Source: a virus | Taxonomy: Duplodnaviria > Heunggongvirae > Uroviricota > Caudoviricetes | DNA: 12,320 nt | Strand: one strand, 5' to 3' | IMG/VR virus record: IMGVR_UViG_2851955134_000006 | Span: 1 to 12,320 of that record | Shown here: piece by piece, positions 1-12,320 of the stretch | Layout: each line of letters opens with the position of its first letter | Numbering within the stretch: position 1 is the stretch's first letter | Program-made: the position numbers and the translations under genes | Notes under the pieces: generated by a model | Databases searched by the model: none | What the model saw: the letters and a program-made list of their open reading frames with translations, nothing else | What the model was told of the DNA's origin: nothing

Positions 1-1230
1 ATGAGCAGAGCACTTAACAAACTGAGCGATACACAGCTAAGGAAAATCAACGGCACACCCGCCCAAAAAACAGTCTTTCTTAATGACGGTGGAAACCTGA
101 CCGTCAGGCATTCAACCAGCGGCCTTTTAACCTGGTATTTCACCTACAGGGCCGGAACGGGAAGGGGAGCACGACCGGAACGGATTAAGCTGGGAAATTA
201 TCCTGATCTGAGCCTGAAAGCAGCCAGGGAAAAAGCCGCACAGTGCCGCGCATGGCTGGCTGAGGGGAAAAATCCACGTCATGAGATGAATTACACCGTA
301 CAGGAAGCGTTAAAGCCTGTAACGGTTGGCGATGCGCTCACCTACTGGCTTGAGTCGTACGCAAAGGAAAACCGTGTGGATTATGACCCACTGAAAAAGC
401 GGCTAAATAATCACGTAATACAGCACATTGGCGCTATGCCGCTGGATAAATGCGAGCTACGGCACTGGCTGGCCTGTTTTGATCGGGTGGCAAAGCAAGC
501 CCCTGTTTCCGCCGGATTCCTGCTACAGACATGCAAACAGGCGCTTAAGTTCTGCCGGAAGCGGCGCTATGCAATCAGCAACGTTCTTGATGATATGAGT
601 GTTGCTGACGTTGGGAAAAAACCGGATATAAGTCAGCGTGTCTTAAGTAACAAAGAACTTGGCGAATTATTGCAGGCACTGGACAAAAAAATATTTTCCC
701 CTTACTACGTCGCACTAATCCGCCTCCTGATTGTCTTCGGAGCCAGGACAGTAGAACTGAGGCTATCGGAGATCGGGGAGTGGGATTTTACCGAAATGCT
801 CTGGACCGTTCCGAAGGAGCACAGCAAAACGAAGGTAGCCATATTCCGGCCCATACCGGAAGCGATACTGCCGTTCGTCACGCAGCTGGTGGAGCAGAAC
901 AGGCACACGGGCTTATTGCTGGGGGAAGTGAAACAGGAGGCCAGCGTATCGCAGTATGGAAGATTAGCGCACAGGAGGCTTAAACACCCTCACTGGTCAC
1001 TGCATGACATCCGGCGCACCTTTACAACGATGCTGAACGATTTAGGCGTGGATCCTCACGTCGTGGAGCAGCTTACAGGCCACCAGATGCCAGGAATGCA
1101 GCGAGTTTATAATCATTCCCGTTATCTGGATGCGAAACGCAATGCGCTGGATATGTGGGTGGAGCGGTTGGAGATACTGGCGGGAGCACATGAAAACGTA
1201 ACCACGCTACCAGTAGCCAGAAGAAAATAA
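1..1230 (+). CDS. int: Site-specific tyrosine integrase, P4-like family
   Basis: 409-aa ORF. N-terminal arm-binding-like region (LSDTQLRK...LNDGGNLTVRH...WYFTYR), C-terminal catalytic region with R..HxxR..Y-type signature (LHDIRRTFTT...GHQMPGMQRVYNHSRY). ATG sits at base 1, so the true start could lie upstream of the window. Confidence 0.9.
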   Translation: MSRALNKLSDTQLRKINGTPAQKTVFLNDGGNLTVRHSTSGLLTWYFTYRAGTGRGARPERIKLGNYPDLSLKAAREKAAQCRAWLAEGKNPRHEMNYTVQEALKPVTVGDALTYWLESYAKENRVDYDPLKKRLNNHVIQHIGAMPLDKCELRHWLACFDRVAKQAPVSAGFLLQTCKQALKFCRKRRYAISNVLDDMSVADVGKKPDISQRVLSNKELGELLQALDKKIFSPYYVALIRLLIVFGARTVELRLSEIGEWDFTEMLWTVPKEHSKTKVAIFRPIPEAILPFVTQLVEQNRHTGLLLGEVKQEASVSQYGRLAHRRLKHPHWSLHDIRRTFTTMLNDLGVDPHVVEQLTGHQMPGMQRVYNHSRYLDAKRNALDMWVERLEILAGAHENVTTLPVARRK

Positions 1231-1604
1231 TTTTTTTCGTGTTTTTTCAGTATGCGCATACTGGATAAGTGCACAGATACAACGGCGAACAATGTGAAAC
1301 AACGTGGAACAACCACGAACAAGAGGCCGAAAAATATACAGATTTATAAGTTGCTGATTTTTAATGCTCAACTGGTTTTTTATACATTAGCGAATAACGC
1401 TTTAAATAGTGAGAAAAAAGGCATGAAACGAGATTTTATGCCTTTGCATAATACTGAATTAAAATGTTTTTTATTAAAATTACCCCGTTTCTGTAAAATA
1501 CCCGCCACCAACATTTGCCAACTCTGAATCACCCTGACACAATCAGACACATACCAACGCAATAGAACACGAAATAACTCTTTAAGAAACGAAAGGGGGC
1601 AATA

Positions 1605-1793
1605 GTGTTAAGCACTGATCGCTTTATACGTGAAAAAGAATGCGAAAAGCTAACAGGCCTTAGCCGCTCATGCCGCTACCGCCTGGAAAAGGCCGGACAA
1701 TTCCCATCACGGCGTAAGCTGGGCGGTCGTTCCGTTGGCTGGTCTTTATCCGAAGTTCTGGCATGGAAGGAAAGCTGCGAGGCAGTTCACTAA
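1605..1793 (+). CDS. alpA: AlpA-family (prophage CP4-57 regulatory protein-like) HTH transcriptional regulator / excisionase-like protein
   Basis: 62-aa ORF with GTG start and SD-like aaggggg 6 nt upstream. Sequence pattern TGLSRS..YRL...GQFP...LGGRSVGW..SEV..W is typical of AlpA/Xis-like MerR-type HTH proteins, and its position directly after int is typical of P4-like islands and Gram-negative PICIs. Confidence 0.8.
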   Translation: MLSTDRFIREKECEKLTGLSRSCRYRLEKAGQFPSRRKLGGRSVGWSLSEVLAWKESCEAVH

Positions 1794-1934
1794 AAAGACT
1801 GGCGGCACACAGCCGCCACCCATCCACTAATACAGAGATTTAACCATGAAGACTGGATATACGCCCGAACAGGGGCGGGGCTTCGTTCGGCCTTGTGAAA
1901 CTGAAAAACAACAAAATCGCGGTTTTTCAGACAT

Positions 1935-1962
1935 AAAAAAAGCGGCCCCGATAAGGAGCCGC
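1935..1962 (-). terminator. Putative rho-independent terminator for the minus-strand two-gene module, possibly bidirectional
   Basis: Stem gcggcccc / ggagccgc (8 bp, one mismatch) with loop gataa, preceded on the plus strand by an A7 run, which reads as a T7 tract after the stem on the minus strand; lies about 160 bp downstream of the minus-strand ORF ending at 2121. Confidence 0.45.
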
Positions 1963-2120
1963 CTTTCTGAACAATTAACCTACTGCGCAAAAAATGAATA
2001 TGAGCAGTGGGATTATATCAACCGTGTGGCGAAGCGCCACAATTGCCGGATAACGGGCAAAGAAAAGGCCACCTGTCACGGTGGCCAATGTGATCAGTGT
2101 CCTGGCTTGCTGGTGGATTG

Positions 2121-2312
2121 TCAGCCAGGTGGGCGGTTTTTGTTTGCTTTTAAGCGCCGAGGGTATTTCTCGACAAAAGGATCAAGGGCGAACTTATCAG
2201 GAACTTTAAGATTTTCAGTGCGGGTTAATGCCTTATTTATTTCCCTGCGGGTTTTCTCACGCTGGCGCATGATAATTGATAATGCTTTATTTTGTAGTTC
2301 CTGGTTATTCAT
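2121..2312 (-). CDS. Hypothetical small basic protein (63 aa)
   Basis: ATG at 2312-2310 on the minus strand with SD aaggtga 7 nt upstream; the ORF track extends it to a GTG at 2321. Lys/Arg-rich (MNNQELQNKALSIIMRQREKTRREINKALTRTENLK...). Sits downstream of the RHH gene on the same strand. No recognisable family. Confidence 0.4.
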   Translation of the reverse strand: MNNQELQNKALSIIMRQREKTRREINKALTRTENLKVPDKFALDPFVEKYPRRLKANKNRPPG

Positions 2313-2369
2313 AATTATCACCTTTAAAACAATGCGCCGCAGTACCTCACACCACGGCGCTGATAGTAA

Positions 2370-2549
2370 TTATTCTGATTCTTTGGCCTTGCGGCGCTGG
2401 CGGCGTTTGATCTCGCCTTTTGCGGCAGTAACTAAAAAACCAGCGGTACTTTCGCCAGGTTCTTTAAGTTGCTCAATATCATCCATTACTTCATGTGGGA
2501 TTCTGACAGTTGTCATTTGTGATTTTGCGTTCTTTGCACCAGTTGCCAT
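2370..2549 (-). CDS. Ribbon-helix-helix (CopG/Arc/MetJ-like) DNA-binding protein, candidate repressor
   Basis: 59-aa ORF starting MATGAKNAKSQMTTVRIPHEVMDDIEQL, an RHH-like N-terminal beta-strand motif (TVRIP.E....IE.L). Strong SD aggaga 7 nt upstream of the ATG on the minus strand. The ORF track's 118-aa version begins at an upstream ATG with no RBS. Confidence 0.6.
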   Translation of the reverse strand: MATGAKNAKSQMTTVRIPHEVMDDIEQLKEPGESTAGFLVTAAKGEIKRRQRRKAKESE

Positions 2550-2610
2550 TTCTGGATCTCCTAAAAATTGGTGTATGTCAGTATACGCAAAAAAAATGAT
2601 AAAAAAAGGC

Positions 2611-2661
2611 TTGAAGTGTATTTCACCAGTGAGTAAATTAAAAAGCAAAGGTGAAATACAC
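2611..2661 (+). promoter_or_regulatory. Divergent control region: candidate rightward sigma70 promoter (TTGAAG -N17- TAAATT) overlapped by a perfect 12-bp inverted repeat operator
   Basis: gtgtatttcacc at 2616-2627 and its exact reverse complement ggtgaaatacac at 2650-2661, separated by 22 bp. The left arm lies in the promoter spacer and the right arm just downstream of the -10. Located between the minus-strand RHH gene and the plus-strand early operon. Confidence 0.45.
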
Positions 2662-2742
2662 CTGAAAGAGCAACGCCCCGCAGTGCTCGCAACACATGCA
2701 GGGCGTCTAACCACCAACGATAGCAAGAGTATCGAGGTAGCT

Positions 2743-2946
2743 ATGAGAAATCATACCACACACCCGCAAGGGCGGGACTCGCACAACCTGAATAAATACA
2801 TCTGGCGTTTTATCGCCCTGAGCACGGCACAACCGCGCGTAATTCACATCGAGGCCACCAGCGAACAGGAAGCACGTCAGCAATCTCCTGATGGCTGCGT
2901 GATGGTATTCGCCGCCCGTATTCGTCAGGAGGTGTGCCATGATTAA
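2743..2946 (+). CDS. Hypothetical protein (67 aa), first gene of the early operon
   Basis: ATG at 2743 with SD gaggt 5 nt upstream. The stop overlaps the next gene's start (ATG 2939, TAA 2944-2946), implying translational coupling. It is the C-terminal part of the long open frame 1846..2946, which is otherwise judged non-coding. Confidence 0.5.
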   Translation: MRNHTTHPQGRDSHNLNKYIWRFIALSTAQPRVIHIEATSEQEARQQSPDGCVMVFAARIRQEVCHD

Positions 2947-3307
2947 CCTGTCACTTACCGATCTTAACCGCGTTCAGTTTCGTGAGAAATTTACCGGACA
3001 GCTACTCGTCAATGTGGAGAACGGGCGCATAGTGCGTAATTATCACCTGCCGGATGGTGCAATTGCCGGAAGCGTTGAAGCATTGCTTGAACTGGCGGAA
3101 CGTGCGCGACTGATTAAGCCGTCAACGAACCATCACGATGATGATCTGCATTTTACCGGATGTATGGTGAGTCACTACGAAAACGGCGTCGAGGTATCCT
3201 GCGAACAGCTACGCACTGATTGCTGTTTTGGCACTCTGCCGGAATTTATCGAATTGCTGACCAGTTGCGGATATCAGGTTATTCAGGGGGTGCGCCATGT
3301 GCAATAA
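2939..3307 (+). CDS. Hypothetical protein (122 aa)
   Basis: Strong SD aggaggtg 4 nt upstream of the ATG; coupled to flanking genes. No recognisable family. Confidence 0.6.
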   Translation: MINLSLTDLNRVQFREKFTGQLLVNVENGRIVRNYHLPDGAIAGSVEALLELAERARLIKPSTNHHDDDLHFTGCMVSHYENGVEVSCEQLRTDCCFGTLPEFIELLTSCGYQVIQGVRHVQ

Positions 3308-3749
3308 CATCCGTCCGGACGCAGCCGCCGCCGCACTCACTACTCTGATGCACGCGCTTATTGATATTTCTGTTATTGCAGACATGGCGCATAAGCACGC
3401 CACCAGAGAGACGGAATATACAGGGGAAATAATCCCCCATTCGCTGGCCTACGCACAGCTTACCGCTGATATGGCACTGAATGAAGCCAAAGCCATCCTG
3501 ATTGCTGATTGTGAAAATGGGGGGGTTATGCGTGATGATCGTTTTAATGCCCTGAAACAGGAATTTTCCGGCGTTCCTGATAATGCGGCTGATGCGCTTT
3601 CGTCAATGCCAGAGCTTATTAGAGCGGCTTTTTTCTTACTTTCCACGAGAGAATATAAATCAACGGGGCTTGATGTACTGAATATCGCCGCCGATTATGC
3701 TGATTTCGTGACAGAGGTTATTTTAAGAAAAACGACGGACGGGGATTAA
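3297..3749 (+). CDS. Hypothetical protein (150 aa)
   Basis: ATG overlaps the upstream gene's end, with SD caggggg upstream. Protein-like composition. No recognisable family. Confidence 0.6.
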   Translation: MCNNIRPDAAAAALTTLMHALIDISVIADMAHKHATRETEYTGEIIPHSLAYAQLTADMALNEAKAILIADCENGGVMRDDRFNALKQEFSGVPDNAADALSSMPELIRAAFFLLSTREYKSTGLDVLNIAADYADFVTEVILRKTTDGD

Positions 3750-3750
3750 T

Positions 3751-3984
3751 ATGCGTGATATTTACCTAGAAACAATAGACCGCGCATTTAGTGCCATTGT
3801 TTACGCTGAAGGTATGTACGAAATATTGCAAATGTATCTGGATACATTTGGCGATAATGAGCGTGATGTAAAGAATGCGCGGATTATTAAATCTCTGATA
3901 ACTCTCCTTGAACCTGTAATAACAGAGTTGCAGGAAATAGACCTATTGCACGACAGATATAAAGAACAGCACACCGGAGAATAA
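3751..3984 (+). CDS. Hypothetical protein (77 aa)
   Basis: Starts 2 nt after the upstream stop, with SD gacgggga upstream. No recognisable family. Confidence 0.55.
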   Translation: MRDIYLETIDRAFSAIVYAEGMYEILQMYLDTFGDNERDVKNARIIKSLITLLEPVITELQEIDLLHDRYKEQHTGE

Positions 3985-3989
3985 AAATA

Positions 3990-4289
3990 ATGAAACTTAA
4001 ATATTCTGGCTTTACTGCCAGCGGCCCCGCTCGGCCTGAAATCCGCCCCGGCGATATTTTCAAAGATAACTACGGCGGCACGGTAACAATTAAAAGCGTG
4101 GAGGAACGTCGCGTAACTTACCGCCGTGATGGCTACGAATATGACTGCGTGATGCCTGTTTATCAGTTCCGGCGTGATTTTTCTCTGGTACAGAACGCAA
4201 CACGCGGTAAGCCCACCAGCAGGGAAAAAGCACGGGAAAATATTAAGAAAATAAAAAGCATGCTCAGCGCATCCAGAGGTAAAAAATGA
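3990..4289 (+). CDS. Hypothetical protein (99 aa), basic C-terminus
   Basis: SD ccggaga upstream; its stop overlaps the start of the replicase gene (ATGA at 4286-4289). Confidence 0.55.
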   Translation: MKLKYSGFTASGPARPEIRPGDIFKDNYGGTVTIKSVEERRVTYRRDGYEYDCVMPVYQFRRDFSLVQNATRGKPTSREKARENIKKIKSMLSASRGKK

Positions 4290-5692
4290 AACTGGCACCG
4301 AACGTAAAACTGTTACCGAAAGATAAACACACTGAGGCGGTTATTTTTGCGGGTGATAATGCTCACTCCTTTGCAGAACATTACATGATTGCACAGGCCA
4401 AAAAAGCAGGCGATCCCATCCCTCCGGTTTACCTGGGCCGTTATCAGTTAAGCGAACTGGACAACTTACAGATTGTTGATGAAGGACGATACAGGGCAAA
4501 GGTCATACGCGCCGGAAACCTGGACGATATGCAGATGCTGACCATTGCCACCAAACTGGCGATCGCAGGTGTCCAGGAAGCACGGTTACTTTCAGAGAAT
4601 TTCGAACTGCTGGAGGACTGGAGCGAGCAACTACCGCGGCTTAAAGAAACCTGGGAACGCGGGGAAAGTCTGGTCATGAATGGTGGAAAGCGAAAAATCA
4701 CACTTCCCATCTCATGGGGTTCTGAGGGATTCGACGCGCAGCAAAGCTACGTAATTAAGGGGCTTATTCCGGCTGAGTCATTATGCAGCACCTACGGGGC
4801 CAGCGGTTCTTATAAATCGTTCCTGGCTATTTCCTGGTCGTGCCATGTTGCCACAGGTATGGCATGGGGAGGCCGCAGGGTAAGTAAGGGCGCTGTTATC
4901 TATATCGCTGGCGAAGGCAGTATGGGCGTAAAACGCCGCGTTAAGGCGTGGGAGATAACCCATGACAAGGTGGTTACAGATTTGTGCATCATTAACGCGC
5001 CGGTATTCCCCGCATCGCCTGACTATGTGGAGCAGGTTATCAGGACTGCCGGACTTGTTAAGAGCAGAACGGGCGAAAATGTGCCGCTGATTGTGATCGA
5101 CACGCTGGCCCGTTGCTTTGGTGGGAATGATGAAAATGATTCCCGTGATATGGGCGCATTTATCCAGGGGTGTGACGCGATAAAGCAGGCTACAGGGGCC
5201 ACGGTGCTGGTGGTTCACCATTCCGGCAAGGATGAAACAAAGGGGGCGCGTGGTTCCAGCGCATTCCGTGCCGCGCTTGATGCAGAGTACCGAATCAGCC
5301 GGGAAAATTCAGACGTTACAGCACTGGTGGCGGCGTGTACGAAGATGAAGGACGCAGAGGAGCCAAAAGAAAGCGCATACGACCTTAAAAGCGTGGAGGT
5401 GTTCACCGATACAGATGGCGAAGAAATTGTGTCTATGGTGGTGATTGACGTTCCCCGCGCCCCTGCTGAACTGGAGCGCATCGAGGAAGCAGGCAACAAA
5501 TCGGAGAATCACGCCGCGCTATGGCAGTGCATCAGAACGCGGACGGCACACAAAGAGCCATGCACTATCGCCCTTCTCCGCGACGATATGAAAAAGCTGG
5601 GGTATGAGATGAAGCACTTCCGGCGCTGGCTGTCCAAGCTGGAAAAAGACGGCGTGATTTGTGTCGATGGGGATGATGTTTACCCACTGTAA
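4286..5692 (+). CDS. Replication initiator ATPase / helicase, RecA-like P-loop NTPase (RepA/AAA_25-like), satellite replicase
   Basis: 468-aa ORF with a P-loop-like segment (LIPAESLCSTYGASGSYKSFLAISW), a Walker B-like hhhhD segment (PLIVIDTLARCFG) and a VVHHSGKDETKG segment typical of RepA/DnaB-type ATPases. Immediately followed by an iteron array. Confidence 0.8.
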   Translation: MKLAPNVKLLPKDKHTEAVIFAGDNAHSFAEHYMIAQAKKAGDPIPPVYLGRYQLSELDNLQIVDEGRYRAKVIRAGNLDDMQMLTIATKLAIAGVQEARLLSENFELLEDWSEQLPRLKETWERGESLVMNGGKRKITLPISWGSEGFDAQQSYVIKGLIPAESLCSTYGASGSYKSFLAISWSCHVATGMAWGGRRVSKGAVIYIAGEGSMGVKRRVKAWEITHDKVVTDLCIINAPVFPASPDYVEQVIRTAGLVKSRTGENVPLIVIDTLARCFGGNDENDSRDMGAFIQGCDAIKQATGATVLVVHHSGKDETKGARGSSAFRAALDAEYRISRENSDVTALVAACTKMKDAEEPKESAYDLKSVEVFTDTDGEEIVSMVVIDVPRAPAELERIEEAGNKSENHAALWQCIRTRTAHKEPCTIALLRDDMKKLGYEMKHFRRWLSKLEKDGVICVDGDDVYPL

Positions 5693-5895
5693 AAAGTGGG
5701 TAGTAAAAGTGGGGAGAGTGGGGAATTTAACAAAATTGAAACATAATTCCCCACTTTCCCACCTGTATACATCCAAAAAAGTGGGGAGCAAAAAACGCAA
5801 TGAAAAACAAAGCATTAGATTCACTCAAAAAACGAAGTGGGGAGCAAGTGGGGAATTTAAAAAGTGGGGAGCAAAAGTGGGGAGTGGTGGGGAAT
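5693..5895. repeat. Iteron array, putative origin of replication of the element
   Basis: At least eight direct copies plus one inverted copy of the core AGTGGGGA, in two flavours (AGTGGGGAGCA and AGTGGGGAATTT), at roughly 5708, 5717, 5780, 5836, 5847, 5863 and 5876, with a variant at 5695 and the inverted copy at 5746-5757. AT-rich spacers. Sits directly downstream of the replicase gene. Confidence 0.7.
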
Positions 5896-5938
5896 GAATA
5901 AAAACCGAACAGCAGGACAAAATACAGAAGGTGAATTT

Positions 5939-6262
5939 ATGAACACTGAAATTGAAACACTGAGCATATCAACTGCCCTTCCTGGCTGGTGGGCTAAGTT
6001 CAAAGACGACGACGGCACGGAATGGTATAGCCCAATTGCTGCATGGGCGCTTTGTGAGATCCACCATTTCGGCACCGGAGATACTTACCGCGAAATCTTA
6101 CCCGTGCTGACCAGTGAGGTGGGCGTGAGTCCGCATAGTCCTGATGAGGGAATGTTCGAGTGCCTTTATCTGCCAGATAAGAAGTTTGTTCACTGCGGTG
6201 AGTCATGGGTATTTGCCTGGTATCCGGTTAACGACAGCAGCAATAGCGGTACTCTGGAGTAA
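5939..6262 (+). CDS. Hypothetical protein (107 aa; alternative start at ATG 5894 gives 122 aa)
   Basis: SD aggtga 4 nt upstream of ATG 5939. The longer ORF-track version starts inside the iteron array and is less likely. Confidence 0.5.
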   Translation: MNTEIETLSISTALPGWWAKFKDDDGTEWYSPIAAWALCEIHHFGTGDTYREILPVLTSEVGVSPHSPDEGMFECLYLPDKKFVHCGESWVFAWYPVNDSSNSGTLE

Positions 6263-6265
6263 ATC

Positions 6266-6508
6266 ATGAAGGTAAACCACAAAAAGACAGATCACCGCGC
6301 CATTGACCTTACAGAGCACTGGCTGAGGGTGGCGATAAAAATCATCGACCGCAACGCGGGAGAAGGATACGCGAAGGAACATCCCGAACTGATTAGCGCA
6401 TTCATGACAACGGCAGCTGCAAACTTTTCCACGCTGACAGAACGGGAGATTGCCGAAGCGCAACAGGTGACAACCATCAACGTTAAAACCAGTGAGGTGG
6501 AATCATGA
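6266..6508 (+). CDS. Hypothetical protein (80 aa)
   Basis: SD ggag 6 nt upstream; its stop overlaps the SSB start (ATGA). Confidence 0.5.
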   Translation: MKVNHKKTDHRAIDLTEHWLRVAIKIIDRNAGEGYAKEHPELISAFMTTAAANFSTLTEREIAEAQQVTTINVKTSEVES

Positions 6509-6915
6509 CAGCACAGATAGCGGCTTACGGGCGGCTGGTGGCTGACCCACAGTTAAAGACCACCAGCAAGGGTACACAAATGGCGATGGCGAGTATGGCT
6601 GTCCCCCTGCCGTGCAGCCAGGCAGATGACGGAACGGCGACGATGTGGTTATCCGTCCTGGCGTTTGGCAGACAGGCCGACGCACTGGCAAAACACCAGA
6701 AAGGCGAACTGGTGAGCGTGGCGGGTAACATGCAGGTGAGCCAGTGGACCGGACAGAACGGGGAAACGCGGCAGGGCTGGCAGGTTATCGCAGACAGCGT
6801 AATCAGTGCGCGGACAGTGCGACCGGGCGGAAAAACACGCAAAACCACAGGCACACAGGGTAATCAGCCACCAGCGGGAGACGATGACCCTTACGGTGAT
6901 GATATTCCGTTCTGA
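6505..6915 (+). CDS. ssb: Single-stranded DNA-binding protein (short, phage/plasmid-type SSB)
   Basis: 136-aa ORF with an OB-fold-like N-terminal region, a Gly/Gln/Pro-rich linker and the hallmark acidic SSB C-terminal tail DDDPYGDDIPF. SD gaggtgg upstream. Confidence 0.8.
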   Translation: MTAQIAAYGRLVADPQLKTTSKGTQMAMASMAVPLPCSQADDGTATMWLSVLAFGRQADALAKHQKGELVSVAGNMQVSQWTGQNGETRQGWQVIADSVISARTVRPGGKTRKTTGTQGNQPPAGDDDPYGDDIPF

Positions 6916-6925
6916 GGGGGTGACG

Positions 6926-7198
6926 ATGGTACATGACCGGATAGCGGAGGAACTGGAGGCGAAAGGATTTTACCGGAGGGCGGCCGCGCGATGGGGTGAA
7001 GTTATGTGGCTGGTGAGCACTGACAAGGAGCGCGAACAGGTGGCAATGCGACGGCTGGAATGTTCCCGGAAGGCACAGAGGCCACCGGAGCCACCGGATG
7101 ATTTAGGCGCTCTGAAAAGGTCAGTTAATCGCACTGAAAAACAAATGGGGATAGCTGGTATTGGCAAAGCAATATGGCGCAACTACCCGCAGAAGTGA
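6926..7198 (+). CDS. PerC-family transcriptional regulator-like protein (90 aa)
   Basis: ATG at 6926 with SD gaggggg upstream. The N-terminal segment MVHDRIAEELEAKGFYRRAAARWGEVMWL matches the PerC/Pch-family pattern (LE.KG.YRRAA.RW) as recalled from memory. The ORF track's longer version overlaps ssb and lacks an RBS. Confidence 0.5.
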   Translation: MVHDRIAEELEAKGFYRRAAARWGEVMWLVSTDKEREQVAMRRLECSRKAQRPPEPPDDLGALKRSVNRTEKQMGIAGIGKAIWRNYPQK

Positions 7199-7205
7199 GC
7201 ACACA

Positions 7206-7227
7206 GCCGGAGCAATCCGGCTTTTTT
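7206..7227 (+). terminator. Rho-independent terminator ending the replication/regulation operon
   Basis: Stem gccgga / tccggc, loop gcaa, then TTTTTT; 8 nt after the PerC-like stop codon. Confidence 0.6.
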
Positions 7228-7233
7228 ACGCCT

Positions 7234-7275
7234 AAAAAAAGCCCGATAAGGTCACAGGGGGCTTATCGGGCTTTT
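7234..7275. terminator. Second hairpin, likely a bidirectional terminator
   Basis: A7 run, then 10-bp perfect stem gcccgataag / cttatcgggc with an 11-nt loop, then tttt; it gives a T7 tract when read on the minus strand. Confidence 0.5.
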
Positions 7276-7354
7276 GCATATGAGGTTTTTTTTGGTGCAC
7301 TGACACACATGAACGGGATAATCATTTCATAATTTGCAACACAACTCAACATCA

Positions 7355-7403
7355 TTGCACAAAATGCAATCATGATTATAATCAGAGCTGGATGAACATC
7401 CAG
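7355..7403 (+). promoter_or_regulatory. Putative sigma70 promoter of the head operon with overlapping dyad symmetries
   Basis: TTGCAC at 7355-7360, a 16-nt spacer, then a consensus TATAAT at 7377-7382. The -10 is embedded in the perfect 12-bp palindrome tgattataatca (7373-7384), and an inverted repeat ctggatg-aa-catccag (7388-7403) sits at the predicted transcription start. Confidence 0.5.
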
Positions 7404-7438
7404 TTATGATTTTTTAAGTCAAAGAGGAATTTCTGACT

Positions 7439-7645
7439 ATGGCAGAAGAGAAAAAAGGCGGGGTGACGGTCTACATAAGCCCCGACATCGTGGAGGCGCT
7501 CAAGGAACGCCACCAGCAGAATGTAAAAGCAGGCATTGCGGCAGGACTTGATCCGCTGGCGATGGTTGAGCCGTCAACAGGCTGGCAGGTGCGCACCTAT
7601 TTACGTGCGGCGCTGGGTATCAATCAGGTTCACGGAGGTGAATAA
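7439..7645 (+). CDS. Hypothetical protein (68 aa), first gene of the head module
   Basis: SD aagaggaa upstream; its stop overlaps the capsid gene start (TAATG). Confidence 0.5.
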   Translation: MAEEKKGGVTVYISPDIVEALKERHQQNVKAGIAAGLDPLAMVEPSTGWQVRTYLRAALGINQVHGGE

Positions 7646-8700
7646 TGACAGGCAAAGCAACGGCACTTACAACTAACCAGCTTTTCGCGTACCTGAATCG
7701 CGGGGATATTGCGGATTTTAAATTCAGCCCTCTGTTTACCACGCTGTTTTTCCCGAACGTGGCGACCTTCAACACCCAAAACATCATGCTGGACACCCTG
7801 GACATTGAAGAGGTTACGATGTCAGCGTTCTGTTCGCCTATGGTGGGTAGTCAGGTCCAGCGCGATAAAGGGTACGAAACCAGCACGATTAAACCCGGCT
7901 ACATGAAGCCAAAGCACGAAATCGATCCAACAAAGACCATCATGCGCATGGCTGGAGAAGATCCGGCACAGCTTAACGATCCAACTTACCGCCGTATGCG
8001 CCTGATTACTGGCAACATGCGCCGCCAGATAAACGCCATTAAGGCGCGCGTGGAATGGCTGGCGGTGAATGCGGTAACGACCGGAAAAAACATCATTGAG
8101 GGCGAAGGCATAGAACGCTATGAAATCGACTGGAAAATACCGGAAAACTGCATCATACAGCAGGCCAGTGGTAAAAAATGGTCCCAGCAGGATAAAGACA
8201 TGCACGACCCAATCTATGACATCGAGCTTTATGCTGATCAGGCAGGTTGCCCCGCCAACGTCATGATTATGGGCGGTGAGGTATGGCGCACATTACGCAG
8301 CTTTAAAAAATTCCGTGAACTGTACGATCTTTCCCGTGGGTCAGAATCCGCCGCCGAGCTGGCCTGTAAAAACCTGGGCGAAGTGGTGAGCTTTAAAGGC
8401 TATCTTGGTGATCTGGCCCTTATCGTCTATTCCGGCAAATACACTGACAGCGACGGCACCGAAAAATATTTCCTTGAGCCTGATTTGCTGGTCCTGGGTA
8501 ACACCAACAATAAAGGGCTGGTGGCCTATGGTGCGATTATGGATCAGGAAGCGGTAAGAACGGGCGCAACGCAAAACATGTACTACCCGAAAAACTGGAT
8601 TGAGGACGGCGATCCGGCGATTGAGTACGTGCAGACGCACAGCGCACCGCAGCCGGTACCGGCAGATATTCGCAAATTTGTTACCGTCAAAATTGCTTAA
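7645..8700 (+). CDS. Major capsid protein, lambda gpE family
   Basis: 351-aa ORF with SD ggaggtg upstream. Blocks of similarity to lambda gpE as recalled from memory: DFKFSPLF..LFF near the N-terminus, PGYMKPKHEIDP (lambda PGYVKPKHEVNP), DPTYRRMRLITGNMR (lambda DPAYRRRRIIMQNMR), and C-terminal YPKNWIEDGDPA...SAP...FVTVKIA (lambda YPKNWVTTGDPA...SAP...FVSVQLA). Confidence 0.9.
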   Translation: MTGKATALTTNQLFAYLNRGDIADFKFSPLFTTLFFPNVATFNTQNIMLDTLDIEEVTMSAFCSPMVGSQVQRDKGYETSTIKPGYMKPKHEIDPTKTIMRMAGEDPAQLNDPTYRRMRLITGNMRRQINAIKARVEWLAVNAVTTGKNIIEGEGIERYEIDWKIPENCIIQQASGKKWSQQDKDMHDPIYDIELYADQAGCPANVMIMGGEVWRTLRSFKKFRELYDLSRGSESAAELACKNLGEVVSFKGYLGDLALIVYSGKYTDSDGTEKYFLEPDLLVLGNTNNKGLVAYGAIMDQEAVRTGATQNMYYPKNWIEDGDPAIEYVQTHSAPQPVPADIRKFVTVKIA

Positions 8701-8711
8701 CGGGGGATTCT

Positions 8712-9047
8712 ATGGACGCTCCATACATTGAGTTATTTTCAGGCAGCCAGCAGGTATCCACGACGCTGGTACATTTTGCCGCTGATGCTGGCGTTATTCA
8801 GGAATTTACCCCTCTGATGCTGGCAGACAATGGCGAGTTTAAGGCGTGGGATGGTCAGGAATCTGGCAAAGCTGTTTATCTGACTTCGCACCCCGTGGAC
8901 ACGTCAAAGCAGAAATCAGCACAGTGTTACAAAACGGGGATATTCAATATTGCCGCCGTTAACTGGCCTGATAGCGTCGACACCGATGCGAAAAAATGCG
9001 CCGCCTTTGCGGGTTCCGGCGTATCCGTTCAGCCGCTGGCCCGATAA
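8712..9047 (+). CDS. Head decoration protein, lambda gpD family
   Basis: 111-aa ORF with SD cggggga upstream. Similarity to lambda gpD as recalled from memory: TPLMLADNGEFKAWDG (lambda TPLMLDTSSRKLVAWDG), YKTGIF (lambda YKSGTF), and C-terminal KKCAAFAGSGVSV (lambda KKRTAFAGTAISIV). Confidence 0.8.
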   Translation: MDAPYIELFSGSQQVSTTLVHFAADAGVIQEFTPLMLADNGEFKAWDGQESGKAVYLTSHPVDTSKQKSAQCYKTGIFNIAAVNWPDSVDTDAKKCAAFAGSGVSVQPLAR

Positions 9048-9059
9048 GCAGGGGGAACG

Positions 9060-9473
9060 ATGGCAACGAATGAAAGTATCATGACGCTACCGCTGGCGAG
9101 TAAATTTAAAGCCGAAGCGCGGGCAATGGCTGACAGAGGTTTATCAACCTACGAGGCCATACACCGACTAAACAAACTGGAAGAACAGGACAAGCCGCGC
9201 GCTGATGCGATTATGGCGCTTCATGAATCTGACGACTACCAGCCGCTGTTACGTGCAATGGCTAACGTGCCTTGTATCGATGTTGGTACGGCTAAAAGCA
9301 TCCTTAGCATGACCATAGAGCAGGAACGCCCGAAGGTTGCACCAGAGCTTACTTCAGCCTTTGAAAACTTTATGGACATGCACAGCCCGAAAGCCGTATC
9401 AGCTGGCATGGCATACGATGGCAGAACCCCGGGCGATGACGGCGACATCGATCGCATACTGAAAACCATCTGA
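9060..9473 (+). CDS. Hypothetical protein (137 aa), last gene of the head module
   Basis: SD agggggaa upstream; followed 7 nt later by a terminator. No recognisable family. Confidence 0.55.
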   Translation: MATNESIMTLPLASKFKAEARAMADRGLSTYEAIHRLNKLEEQDKPRADAIMALHESDDYQPLLRAMANVPCIDVGTAKSILSMTIEQERPKVAPELTSAFENFMDMHSPKAVSAGMAYDGRTPGDDGDIDRILKTI

Positions 9474-9479
9474 GACAAG

Positions 9480-9502
9480 GCCGGAGAAATCCGGCTTTTT
9501 TT
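9480..9502 (+). terminator. Rho-independent terminator ending the head operon
   Basis: Stem gccgga / tccggc, loop gaaa, then TTTTTTT. Nearly identical to the terminator at 7206-7227. Confidence 0.65.
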
Positions 9503-9507
9503 GCGGG

Positions 9508-9575
9508 TCCTTTCCGGCATGTGGACCCGTTACGGGGCGTCGACCTCGCGCGTTTTCGCTATTTATGACGTTTTT
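9508..9575 (+). other. Lambda-like cohesive-end site (cos-1: cosQ-like flank, cosN, start of cosB)
   Basis: CGTTACGGGGCGTCGACCTCGCGCGTTTTCGCTATTTATGACGTTTTTCCG closely matches the lambda cos region as recalled (…GGGCGGCGACCTCGCGGGTTTTCGCTATTTATGAAAATTTTCCGG…). The predicted 12-nt cohesive end GGGCGTCGACCT (9535-9546) differs from lambda GGGCGGCGACCT at one position. Located about 90 bp upstream of a Nu1-like gene on the same strand. Confidence 0.75.
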
Positions 9576-9635
9576 CCGTGAAGGTGACACCACCACCACT
9601 TGATTAACATTTAATCGCATGATTAAGGTAACATT

Positions 9636-10076
9636 ATGATTGATAAAGCTTGTTTTGTGAGTCAGCAGGAAATAGCAGAACATTTCAAGGTCAACAGAAC
9701 CACTATTCGCGCATGGACCAAACAGGGCATGCCATATCTTGATGCGGATCGCGGAAAGTCCGGCGGTTATCACATCGGACACACATTATTCTGGTGCATG
9801 GGTAAAAGCCATCTTGATGCTATTGAGTACCACGGAGAAACCAGCGCACTGGAAAAGATTATGGTTGCCAGGTTGATTGCGTCAGAGCGCGACGAGTATT
9901 TCAGTGAAGAAACAGAACAGCGATTTGATGAAGGTTTGCATATTTACGGCTATTCACCGGAAGATGTGAGCAAGGCACGAAATAAAATGGCTGGCTTTCT
10001 GGCTGGGTGGCGTCATGCCGTAAGCGTTCGCCGTGCCAGCATGGAACAATCAGTCGTTACAGAACAGCAAAGTTAA
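9636..10076 (+). CDS. Nu1-like terminase small subunit homolog (N-terminal winged HTH); candidate packaging-redirection (Rpp-like) protein
   Basis: 146-aa ORF. N-terminus FVSQQEIAEHFKVNRTTIRAWTKQGMPYLDADRGKSGG resembles lambda Nu1 (QLADIFGASIRTIQNWQEQGMPVLRGGGKG, recalled from memory). The C-terminal region is shorter and unrelated to the Nu1 gpA-binding region. No large terminase gene follows. Confidence 0.7.
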   Translation: MIDKACFVSQQEIAEHFKVNRTTIRAWTKQGMPYLDADRGKSGGYHIGHTLFWCMGKSHLDAIEYHGETSALEKIMVARLIASERDEYFSEETEQRFDEGLHIYGYSPEDVSKARNKMAGFLAGWRHAVSVRRASMEQSVVTEQQS

Positions 10077-10079
10077 AAA

Positions 10080-10260
10080 TCACTTTCTGTTACGCCATCA
10101 AATACGCAATACAACAACCACGTATTTTTTTAAAACTATTTGATTCAATTAGCATTTTTTTATTTTTAGCATCAAAAAAACACTATCAGGTTGTTGTATT
10201 GCTCTTTATTTTTACTTAGTTATCAAATGGATATGACAAACAATTAAACAACAACCTCCC
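10080..10260. repeat. AT-rich region with a 14-bp perfect inverted repeat and short direct repeats
   Basis: gcaatacaacaacc at 10106-10119 and its reverse complement ggttgttgtattgc at 10189-10202 (69 bp apart), a third partial copy aacaacaacc at 10247-10256, and direct repeats of ttagcat in a T-rich context between the arms. Confidence 0.45.
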
Positions 10261-10272
10261 TCTAAAAAAGCT

Positions 10273-10345
10273 CATAAATAGCGAAAAACCGCGAGGTCGA
10301 CGCCCCGTAACGGGCCATAATTCCAGGAAGGACCCGACGACACCA
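10273..10345 (-). other. Second lambda-like cos site (cos-2), inverted relative to cos-1
   Basis: The reverse complement of 10273-10345 reads ggtgtcgtcgggtccttcctggaattatggCCCGTTACGGGGCGTCGACCTCGCGgtttttcgctatttatga. A 25-bp core is identical to cos-1, with flanking similarity on both sides (gggtcctttccgg versus gggtccttcctgg; cgttttcgctatttatga versus gtttttcgctatttatga). Cohesive-end equivalent at 10294-10305. Confidence 0.7.
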
Positions 10346-10369
10346 GACTATCAGAGCGATGGGCGCACA

Positions 10370-10651
10370 ATGACAGAAGCCGAACTACTGGGATTAATCC
10401 GCCGCGTTACCGGAATCAGCCAGCAGCATGACGAACAGGCCACGCAGCCGGACAGCGTGACCGCCGAAAATTACGCGTGTGTTGTTGCTGAGGTGATGCG
10501 CCGTGATGGTATTGAGCTTAACGGCGTGGATATGCGCAACATACGAACCAGAGTCCTTGAGTTGCTGGCATACCGTCGCCGTTCTCAACAACGGAGGGAG
10601 AGCGCGAAAAATACTTACCAGTGGAAGAAGCCGGAACGACTGCGTACGTAA
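10370..10651 (+). CDS. Hypothetical protein (93 aa)
   Basis: ORF with a weak SD; followed about 70 bp later by a plus-strand hairpin with a T tract. Arg-rich C-terminus. No recognisable family. Confidence 0.4.
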   Translation: MTEAELLGLIRRVTGISQQHDEQATQPDSVTAENYACVVAEVMRRDGIELNGVDMRNIRTRVLELLAYRRRSQQRRESAKNTYQWKKPERLRT

Positions 10652-10721
10652 TACGTACGGACATCGAGATAAAGACGGTTTAACCATCCATTAAAAATCG
10701 ACGTGATTTTGTGCTTTCCGG

Positions 10722-10745
10722 ATGACGTGGCCAACGTCATTTTTT
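10722..10745 (+). terminator. Putative rho-independent terminator
   Basis: Stem atgacgt / acgtcat, loop ggcca, followed by ttttt. Confidence 0.5.
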
Positions 10746-10967
10746 AGCGAAAAATTCTGATTAAGGTCATTGGCTGAATGGTCATAATGACCACTCCTAC
10801 AGAACAGGTAAAGCCCACCAGCCTGATTAAAGGTTAACCGGAAAAAAAGCCAGGTATCAATCTCGATATGTGGATCCCCATATCGACAGCAACGCCCCCT
10901 TAAAATTACCCGCCTTTATATTTCTTGTGCCTATTTGTTCCACGTTGTTTCATACAGTGCACCGATC

Positions 10968-10991
10968 GGTGTAGTTAATGGTGTAGTTAAT
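10968..10991. repeat. Perfect tandem duplication of a 12-bp unit (ggtgtagttaat x2), preceded by the palindrome accgatcggt
   Basis: Read directly: 10968-10979 and 10980-10991 are identical; the palindrome is at 10961-10970. Confidence 0.6.
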
Positions 10992-11084
10992 TTGCGATTT
11001 TTGGCACTTTTTTTAGTGTAAGTTGTTTAATTAAATCAATACGTTATTGAAAATAAGTTATAGATATATCCCATTTATGACTCC

Positions 11085-12320
11085 TTATTTCTGCCAGGCA
11101 AGTTGATAAAGCATGAGTGCCAACGTTTTGACCCCTTCGGCAAGGTCGGTAATATTGGTGCGTTCCGCCGGGTTATGGCTGATCCCATTGATGCTGGGAA
11201 TGAAAATCATGCAGGTTGGTACGCGAGGCGCGAAAATTTGCGCGTCGTGCCCGGCACCACTGTGCATCACCCGGTAATTCAGTTTTTCGCTTTCACACAA
11301 TTCTGTCAGGGTGGCGACCAGGTCCTTATTCATCGGCACGGGTTCTTCGTCCATCCATAAATCGATATCAATACCAATGTCCATTTCATCGCAAATCGCC
11401 CGCATGTCGTTTTCTAACTGCTGAGTGAAATCGCGCAGCACGGCGGCGTCGGTATGACGACAATCAATGGTGAATGTGGTTTTACCCGGCACCACATTCA
11501 CCGTATTCGGGCGCGGCTCCACCTTACCAAAGGTCAGCACCAGCGGGTCGCCCATCTTTTTCGCTTTTTCGATCGACTGATGGCAAATGCGACTGAAAGC
11601 GTAAACTGTATCACGACGGTAACCCATCGGCGTGGTGCCTGCATGGTTTGATTCGCCGTTCAGCGTCACCGTATAGCGACGTTGCCCGACAATTGCATTC
11701 ACCACGCCAATTGATTGCCCATTACTTTCCAGCACACAGCCCTGTTCGATATGCAGTTCGACAAAGGCTTTAATATCCTGACGCGGAGTTAGCGGGGCGT
11801 CCGGCAGAGTAAATCCGCAAGCCTTCATCGCATCGACAAAACTATTTCCTTTGGCATCACAGATATTCCGCACGTCGTCAGGATTCGCCAGCCCAAAGAT
11901 ATTTTTACTGCCCCAGAAAACATACGGGAAGCGGCTGCCTTCTTCTTCCGCCATCGCCACCACTTCAACCGTACGTAACGGCGCGCCGTATTGCCTTTTC
12001 AACCAGTCAATTGCCAGCCACGCCGCCAGCGCGCCGAATTGCCCGTCGAGGTTACCGCCGTTAACCACGGTATCGATATGCGAACCGCTCAGAACCACTT
12101 CCTGTGGATATTCGGTGCCACTCAGGCGACCGTATAAATTCCCCACTTCATCGAAACGTGTTTCCAGCCCGCTTGCTGCCATTCTTTTTTTAAATTGCTG
12201 CTGGGTTTCCAGCCATTCCGGCGAATAAAGTAAACGGGTCATCCCACCCGTTGGGTCAGCGCCAAAAGAGGAAAGCCAGGGCAGCGTTTCTTCTATGGCT
12301 TGACGGAAATGTGTAATCAT
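11085..12320 (-). CDS. allC: Allantoate amidohydrolase (M20 peptidase / hydantoinase-carbamoylase family), host chromosomal gene
   Basis: Complete 411-aa ORF with ATG at 12320-12318. M20-type metal-binding motifs (SGSHIDTV, DGQFG, EEEGSRF, HNPAE). Full-length match to my recollection of enterobacterial AllC (MITHFRQAIEETLPWLSSFGADP...). Confidence 0.8.
   Translation of the reverse strand: MITHFRQAIEETLPWLSSFGADPTGGMTRLLYSPEWLETQQQFKKRMAASGLETRFDEVGNLYGRLSGTEYPQEVVLSGSHIDTVVNGGNLDGQFGALAAWLAIDWLKRQYGAPLRTVEVVAMAEEEGSRFPYVFWGSKNIFGLANPDDVRNICDAKGNSFVDAMKACGFTLPDAPLTPRQDIKAFVELHIEQGCVLESNGQSIGVVNAIVGQRRYTVTLNGESNHAGTTPMGYRRDTVYAFSRICHQSIEKAKKMGDPLVLTFGKVEPRPNTVNVVPGKTTFTIDCRHTDAAVLRDFTQQLENDMRAICDEMDIGIDIDLWMDEEPVPMNKDLVATLTELCESEKLNYRVMHSGAGHDAQIFAPRVPTCMIFIPSINGISHNPAERTNITDLAEGVKTLALMLYQLAWQK

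Follow-up and report, generated by a model that had tools for sequence, protein, structure and literature searches.

A Nu3-type scaffold domain and a satellite-only small protein in the capsid operon of an EcCICFT073-type phage satellite

What do two small genes do for a phage satellite when they bracket a capsid gene and a decoration gene? The question is raised by a 12,320-nucleotide stretch of viral DNA (IMG/VR record IMGVR_UViG_2851955134_000006, positions 1 to 12,320; hereafter the window), in which an original prediction, made from the letters alone, had placed a 68-aa open reading frame (ORF) at 7439–7645, coupled to the capsid gene by a TAATG overlap, and a 137-aa ORF at 9060–9473. Both coordinates are confirmed. 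By its gene content the window is a phage satellite, more precisely a Gram-negative phage-inducible chromosomal island (PICI) of the EcCICFT073 type, Rpp-encoding and cos-packaged: it has an integrase, an AlpA-like regulator, a replication protein and Rpp, a size of ~11 kb, and neither tail nor lysis genes. From 7300 to 9600 it is 94% identical at the nucleotide level to positions 1385323–1387623 of Escherichia coli CFT073, with an identical gene order, and DNA of this region is found in 639 of 5426 complete E. coli genomes. According to the supplement of Fillol-Salom et al. (2018), the CFT073 genes are c1498 (68 aa), c1499 (a 351-aa capsid protein), c1500 (111 aa) and c1501 (137 aa). This identity and these lengths designate the window's two small proteins as the orthologues of c1498 and c1501, in the same operon and with the same neighbours (93% amino-acid identity each), and the results published for c1498–c1501 are expected to hold for the window's operon. 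The two bracketed genes are indeed those that had been named, a gpE-like major capsid protein (c1499 homologue; 7645–8700, + strand; Pfam Phage_cap_E, E 2.5e-50), 43% identical to lambda E, and a gpD-like head decoration protein (c1500 homologue; 8712–9047, + strand; Pfam HDPD, E 2.2e-17), 36% identical to lambda D.

The clearest answer concerns the second small gene. Sequence comparison shows the 137-aa protein (c1501 homologue; 9060–9473, + strand) to be a homologue of the C-terminal domain common to the gpC protease and gpNu3, i.e. a free-standing domain of the Nu3 scaffold type. It matches phrog_1999, whose function is not annotated in PHROG, with E 5.6e-62. A further match (E 1e-7) is to the C-terminus of the “head maturation protease” family phrog_53, at positions 496–567 of 583. 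Residues 117–200 of lambda Nu3 match positions 42–129 of the same phrog_1999 profile (E 2.7e-26), and residues 365–501 of the C protein of PhiR12_2_star span it entirely (positions 1–135, E 1.6e-66). When the 137-aa protein was compared by tblastn with 50,697 phage records, only six lambdoid Escherichia phages were matched, always at the extreme end of the gene annotated as protease C or scaffold Nu3. By BLASTP, residues 49–131 align with the 501-aa C/Nu3 protein of the PhiR12 type (36% identity, E 4e-10), with a second and weaker match to the preceding repeat, and ~83 C-terminal residues align with a three-repeat C protein, the 501-aa S49 peptidase of the CFT073 icd prophage (35%, E 2e-9). 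CFT073 carries a lambdoid prophage at icd, which is the site reported for the helper of EcCICFT073 (PMC10111431). Finally a distant relative (P0041), retrieved by an exhaustive HMMER search, is encoded just ahead of D, E and FI, where Nu3 has its place.

The organization of the protein agrees with this kinship. Its alignment with C/Nu3 proteins brings out a common helix-loop-helix repeat (IMAL..E.......LA..P......A..IL), an F.NFM..HSP segment, an acidic linker and a terminal helix; the repeat motif, F..FM..(H)SP, the acidic linker and the terminal helix are likewise the features shared with the gpNu3/gpC C-terminus of lambda (phrog_53, phrog_8940, phrog_8399). As read from the profile alignment, a pair of helix-loop-helix repeats is followed in the 137-aa protein by an acidic, disordered linker and then by a helix at the C-terminus. 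This arrangement is collinear with the helper-type protein from the second of its three repeats through its linker and tail; lambda has a single repeat. The AlphaFold2 model is all-helical, with residues 109–126 as a disordered linker before the C-terminal helix, and found no fold match in structure comparison, as expected for a scaffold. No Pfam or NCBIfam family and no PDB chain at E <= 0.3 matched the protein, and PDB sequence and profile searches with both small proteins and with lambda C returned no solved Nu3 domain. The family is very narrow, since the exhaustive HMMER search collected 9 matches among 1.84 billion representatives. What differs from lambda is the setting: there is no internal in-frame start nested in a protease gene upstream of D and E; instead the gene is satellite-encoded and stands alone downstream of E and D, with its own ATG and its own ribosome-binding site (RBS), GGGGGA, in an island devoid of the protease domain (no S49 peptidase was found in the window by Pfam scan or in the ORF list).

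The original prediction had recognized no lambda head protein in either small ORF. For the 137-aa protein this view has to be abandoned in favor of a Nu3/gpC C-terminal homologue; for W, FI and FII it stands, as searches of Pfam, NCBIfam and the PDB gave no hit for either small protein, and the PHROG matches are limited to phrog_3255 for the 68-aa protein and phrog_1999 and phrog_53 for the 137-aa protein.

Two observations may be added on the 137-aa family. Some E. coli strains encode 93-aa deletion variants (P0026, P0029, P0031), in which ...AEARAMA is joined to NVPCID..., and these look like the product of a recombination between the internal repeats that left one repeat and the tail. Besides, many members are labelled “phage head-tail connector protein” by RefSeq/PGAP. 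No NCBIfam model supports this label, which probably stems from “head-tail preconnector”, a name of C/Nu3 in the records of PhiR12 phages, and is misleading.

The 68-aa protein (c1498 homologue; 7439–7645, + strand; phrog_3255, function not annotated) is of a quite different kind. Database searches collected 46 relatives, all from Enterobacterales and all hypothetical, the named ones belonging to Escherichia, Salmonella, Edwardsiella and Pluralibacter only; not one match was found in the 50,697 phage records. To judge from these searches it appears as an orphan confined to the satellites of Enterobacterales, and in the contexts examined its gene is always the first of the operon, directly upstream of the satellite capsid gene. 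The AlphaFold2 model (mean predicted local distance difference test, pLDDT, 75.6) consists of a hairpin and two helices, in a strand-helix-helix arrangement, and neither structure nor sequence searches gave a fold or PDB match. The N-terminal part has a strand-helix signature, hTVYISxDhhxxL. Of 17 family members, four match BrnA_antitoxin (best E 0.017) and four match RHH_1 (best E 0.064), all below the gathering score; these eight matches cover the conserved VTVYISPDIVEAL segment and are the only sequence signals found, the window's own protein having no Pfam match at E <= 0.1. We also considered that the 68-aa protein derives from the end of an S49 protease domain, its GLDPL resembling AGLADEL, and dropped this idea when its hhalign comparison with lambda C and with PhiR12 C yielded a probability <1%.

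Both small genes belong to the same transcription unit. The 68-aa, capsid, decoration and 137-aa genes form one unit with its own promoter, set between terminator-like hairpins. Upstream, two such hairpins (7205–7275, + strand) part the unit from a PerC-family gene: one at 7205–7222, followed by a U-run (dG −12.6, z −4.7), and one at 7237–7275, flanked by an A-run and a U-run (dG −24.2, z −6.2). Downstream the unit ends at 9477–9502 (+ strand) with a stem at ~9477–9498 (dG −14.7, z −2.9) and then U7 to 9502. Within it, the 68-aa ORF starts with ATG behind the RBS AAGAGGAA at 7423–7430, which is strong and invariant across islands, and its stop codon TAA (7643–7645) has one base in common with the capsid ATG (7645–7647), thus forming TAATG; this 1-nt overlap is present in most related islands (L005, L007, L010 and L012).

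The region 7324–7418 (+ strand), ahead of the first gene, would act as an operon-specific promoter. It carries two 17-bp palindromes, ATTKCA-N5-TGMAAT, at 7324–7340 and 7354–7370, ~30 bp apart and with half-sites 11 bp apart; a perfect −10 box, TATAAT, at 7377–7382, the −35/spacer of which is overlapped by the second palindrome; and a leader hairpin, CTGGAT-N4-ATCCAG, with a U-run at 7383–7415 (dG −10.1, z −3.4). The predicted transcription start lies near 7389. The palindromes and the −10 box are kept in seven islands from several genera, the leader hairpin in five of the seven. In the window the palindrome occurs twice for 0.23 matches expected, both times at this promoter and nowhere else, and it has no exact match in the compared head regions of helper prophage and lambda. 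The palindromes thus form a candidate operator, for which either the 68-aa protein or a factor of the helper is a possible binder. The leader hairpin might have pointed to a late promoter antiterminated by Q; this was set aside, the hairpin being missing in two of the seven islands and terminator-like matches being no commoner in the region than in shuffles. In the uninduced transcriptome of CFT073, c1498–c1501 mRNA rises after a shift from 23 to 37 C (PMC12890032), which agrees with a private promoter and a discrete transcript.

The operon is also maintained by selection. Pairwise comparisons with three or four homologous loci gave ratios of nonsynonymous to synonymous substitution rates (dN/dS) of 0.16–0.22 for the 68-aa gene, 0.11–0.24 for the 137-aa gene, 0.08–0.09 for the capsid gene and 0.09–0.22 for the decoration gene, which indicates that both small ORFs are true coding genes under purifying selection. 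The gene order is kept in Escherichia, Salmonella, Edwardsiella and metagenomic contigs, and the 68-aa, capsid and decoration genes are found in every context examined—this co-occurrence being read from seven island contexts and not from a systematic sample, as scans of genome contigs with the capsid protein or its alignment gave no match. The fourth gene varies: in the more distantly related islands its product, Nu3-tail-like and of variable length, is shorter, with 68 aa in L010, 95 aa in L013 and 101 aa in L012, the last of these retaining the FDQFMQMHCP...LLSIP tail (phrog_1999, E 0.002). The Edwardsiella island L007 lacks it altogether. The original prediction is thus supported in placing both small genes in the capsid operon of a satellite and in making them candidates for assembly factors. 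Compared with the CFT073 icd prophage, the identity is 46% for the capsid protein, 43% for the decoration protein and 35% for the scaffold, and the order of the island, 68 aa-E-D-Nu3-like, differs from the C/Nu3-D-E of the phage. Low identity and differing order argue for an old, separately evolving lineage and against a recent capture.

Two of these related islands have a particular location. In Edwardsiella tarda (CM130058.1, L007 1–10120) the island lies inside a lambdoid portal gene and carries the 70-aa, capsid and decoration genes without a Nu3-like gene; in a Salmonella contig (L010 157–10219) it lies inside the gene of the terminase large subunit. Both are helper-embedded PICIs.

We propose that c1498–c1501 constitute a capsid operon in which the 137-aa protein is the cognate scaffold of the capsid protein and the 68-aa protein a partner specific to satellites. 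Lambda Nu3 dimerizes, interacts with E, promotes the assembly of procapsids, is needed for the incorporation of the portal and is removed by the protease (PMC3224144). By analogy, the C-terminal part of the 137-aa protein would attach to the inside of the shell built by the island's gpE-like protein, and the helical repeats would associate with each other, making of it an internal scaffold. With the gpD-like decoration protein, the island would then hold a full set for polymerizing and stabilizing a shell. It encodes the capsid protein, the decoration protein and the scaffold and has no portal, protease or large terminase; these, with the tails, would still be provided by the helper. The 68-aa protein would control its own operon by binding the two conserved palindromes that overlap the promoter or, alternatively, would help in assembly as a cofactor produced along with the capsid protein. 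The selective value of the module probably lies in other conditions than those of the laboratory, for example with other helpers, when the island is integrated inside a helper, or in competition. To this reading, taken as a whole, we give an even chance.

Several points weigh against it. The module is not needed with the helpers that were tested, since transfer and interference with lambda persist when c1499 or c1500 is deleted, when c1501 is disrupted or when c1498–c1501 are replaced. That the island's capsid protein assembles, and that the 137-aa protein binds it, are steps that we infer. The 137-aa protein could not be aligned with lambda Nu3 by BLASTP, and the link to lambda therefore goes through profiles and through the C proteins of the helper type; phrog_1999 itself may include fragments of Nu3. 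Lastly, a custom hidden Markov model (HMM) of the 40-residue repeat picks up the second repeat only (E 8.7e-6), and the first one is recognized solely from collinearity with phrog_1999 and from visual inspection.

For the 68-aa protein, we tentatively prefer a small DNA-binding autoregulator resembling the ribbon-helix-helix (RHH) proteins, with a likelihood somewhat short of even. What recalls CopG, Arc or BrnA is the strand-helix signature, the sub-threshold matches, the predicted strand-helix-helix topology and the paired palindromes at the promoter, whose half-sites are 11 bp apart. Moreover the palindromes are specific to the operon, and the 68-aa protein is the sole operon-specific product present in all seven islands. 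The competing possibility, that the satellite capsid protein uses it as a structural or assembly cofactor (e.g. a chaperone, a partner of the N-arm or an adaptor to the helper portal) and that it is not a regulator, is more doubtful but has arguments of its own. The strong and invariant RBS, the base shared with the capsid ATG in most islands examined and the slightly acidic composition would suit an assembly partner, as would the lack of any significant match to a DNA-binding family or fold, and the gene is kept even in L007, where the Nu3-like fourth gene is absent. In many phages a scaffold gene occupies the position held here by the 68-aa gene. Nevertheless no similarity to known head proteins or to gpC/Nu3 was found, the sole sequence signals, weak as they are, indicate RHH families, and the operon-specific palindromes call for a binder.

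The idea that one of the two proteins determines capsid size was part of the original prediction, by analogy with Sid, CpmB or TcaP, and an absence of effect of deletion on transfer had been named as an argument against it. This is what the published genetics of the 94%-identical EcCICFT073 operon report. Transfer and interference with lambda are unchanged when c1499 or c1500 is deleted (PMC6092414); the standard tetracycline marker, c1501::tetA, sits in the orthologue of the 137-aa gene, and islands that carry it are transferred (PMC6092414); with c1498–c1501 swapped for cas9 or melA, the island is still transduced with phi80 (PMC10530653, PMC10460865). The deletion, marker and cargo-replacement results together make the operon dispensable, in the laboratory, for transfer by lambda, by phi80 and by the helper of CFT073, which weighs against an essential role in capsid size. 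For neither protein was a sequence relation to CpmB, Sid, Psu or TcaP found in the PDB (E <= 0.3), Pfam or NCBIfam. The DNA packaged in the presence of lambda and EcCICFT073 was all of phage size (PMC6092414), and later papers state that islands of this type are packaged as multimers in large capsids.

On the other hand two reservations should be made. Staphylococcus aureus pathogenicity island 1 (SaPI1) is transduced normally without functional CpmB, a genuine size determinant (PMC5644958), so that the missing transfer defect does not disprove a role in size. Furthermore the only island markers described in the 2018 paper are c1501::tetA and c1499::cat, both inside the operon. The size test was thus likely performed on an island with a disrupted operon, and the failure to observe small capsids loses part of its weight.

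These reservations leave some room for a wider proposal, which we consider unlikely: EcCICFT073-type islands might be “partial capsid formers”, building with their own capsid, decoration and mini-Nu3 proteins, under the control or with the help of the 68-aa protein, satellite-specific and possibly smaller shells on the helper portal. Scaled by volume from T=7 and 48.5 kb, the capacity of a T=3 or T=4 shell comes to ~14–21 kb, room for one or two copies of the island. If such shells exist, they could have been overlooked, as the 2018 markers lie inside the operon and neither lambda nor phi80 is of the natural helper type. Satellites with a capsid protein of the HK97 fold of their own are already known. 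The capsid-forming PICIs (cf-PICIs, e.g. EcCIEDL933) build their own small capsids; unlike the window's island they also encode portal, protease, connectors, HNH and both terminase subunits. At the opposite, Ccm of SaPIbov5 is a lone capsid homologue that reshapes the capsids of the helper. The module of the window—capsid, decoration, scaffold and 68-aa protein—is intermediate between the two.

Still less favored is a redirection or poisoning of helper assembly in the manner of CpmB: the Nu3-like C-terminus of the 137-aa protein would compete with the gpC/gpNu3 of the helper on helper or mixed shells, and altered curvature or exclusion of the protease would give satellite-sized or defective heads, with the 68-aa protein assisting as CpmA does. 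Like CpmB, the 137-aa protein is small, helical and satellite-encoded, and its C-terminus is homologous to that of the helper scaffold (35% identity over 83 residues with the C/Nu3 end of the icd prophage), in the same way as CpmB relates to the scaffold of 80alpha (PMC5644958). An island of ~11 kb otherwise needs multimer packaging to fill a 48-kb head, and the dispensability of CpmB for normal transduction and the probable use of disrupted operons in the size test apply here in particular. However CpmB and the 137-aa protein have no relation in sequence, and CpmB acts on the capsid protein of the helper, whereas the island has capsid and decoration genes of its own, the former superfluous for a pure redirector. 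The phage-sized packaged DNA and the large capsids of later papers argue against it, small capsids not having been seen for EcCICFT073 (PMC6092414). Finally, of the genes downstream of ori cloned individually, only c1503 (rpp/rppA) blocked lambda, the others leaving its plaques unreduced, and deletion of rpp brought lambda plaquing back almost fully (PMC6739421).

That the operon would be an idle leftover, or a “backup copy”, of late genes taken from the helper by recombination (a course proposed for helper-embedded PICIs that interrupt head genes of their helper), with small ORFs devoid of any role, is very improbable: no phenotype is reported for any of its genes, related islands do lie inside helper portal and terminase genes (L007, L010) and late-gene capture and backup copies have been discussed (PMC10111431), but all four genes are under purifying selection, the order, promoter, RBS and mostly also the 1-nt overlap are kept across genera, the 35–46% identity to the icd prophage proteins speaks for an old separate lineage, and neither the E-D order nor the 68-aa gene, absent from the phages searched, is that of a phage.

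Neither the element nor the two genes are new, the latter being already on record as ORFs without annotation in a model PICI; in the literature that we searched, c1498 and c1501 appear as hypotheticals serving as sites for markers or cargo, and no paper was found that ties PICIs to Nu3. What the comparisons add is the placement of c1501-type proteins (phrog_1999) in the Nu3 scaffold family, a conserved module of four parts with what appears to be its own promoter and a candidate operator, and the caveat on the published size experiment, whose markers lie within the operon. A capsid gene is present in 21 of 29 reference Gram-negative PICIs (PMC10111431). That here it is accompanied by a decoration protein, a scaffold of the Nu3 type and a 68-aa protein confined to satellites suggests a coherent module for building shells, not a stray capsid homologue, and the retention of capsid genes by satellites becomes a question that can be directly tested. 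The annotation should also be corrected, as databases name proteins of the c1501 type “hypothetical” or “head-tail connector”, and phrog_1999 has no annotated function despite its match to lambda Nu3.

Around the operon the window shows the other parts of the island, with the integrase at 1–1230, the AlpA-like gene at 1605–1793, a 468-aa RepA/AAA_25 helicase (phrog_2850) at 4286–5692, a single-stranded DNA-binding protein (SSB) at 6505–6915, the PerC-family gene ending at 7198 and, at the island edge, the chromosomal allantoate amidohydrolase gene (allC). The Rpp (redirecting phage packaging) protein is encoded at 9636–10076 (+ strand) and recognized by PDB 6hlk RppC (E 1.7e-32; PMC6739421) and by the N-terminus of the small terminase family phrog_57; its gene is a transcription unit separate from the capsid operon, marks the island type and gives the packaging specificity.

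A few minor observations concern these neighbors. In the ORF list the PerC-family frame begins with a GTG, spans 6806–7198 and overlaps the SSB gene; its Pfam match begins at residue 41 and the RefSeq homologues have 82–90 aa, and the real start is probably near 6926. A 366-aa ORF at 1846–2946 is probably spurious, the counterpart region of CFT073 containing short genes, some of them on the opposite strand. A PADLOC scan gave no defence-family match among the operon proteins. Downstream of rpp, a conserved 93-aa ORF (10370–10651; phrog_1561, function not annotated) is found at the same place in CFT073 and L005, its only other match being a weak one to a BrxA-like PADLOC model (E 0.004). The replication module is mosaic: the RepA/AAA_25 helicase of the window corresponds in EcCICFT073 to a 584-aa protein of the primase family (L001 4919–6673), and despite this difference the capsid operon is still 94% identical between the two islands. 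Their integration sites differ as well, the island of the window adjoining allC and that of CFT073 lying between roxA and phoQ.

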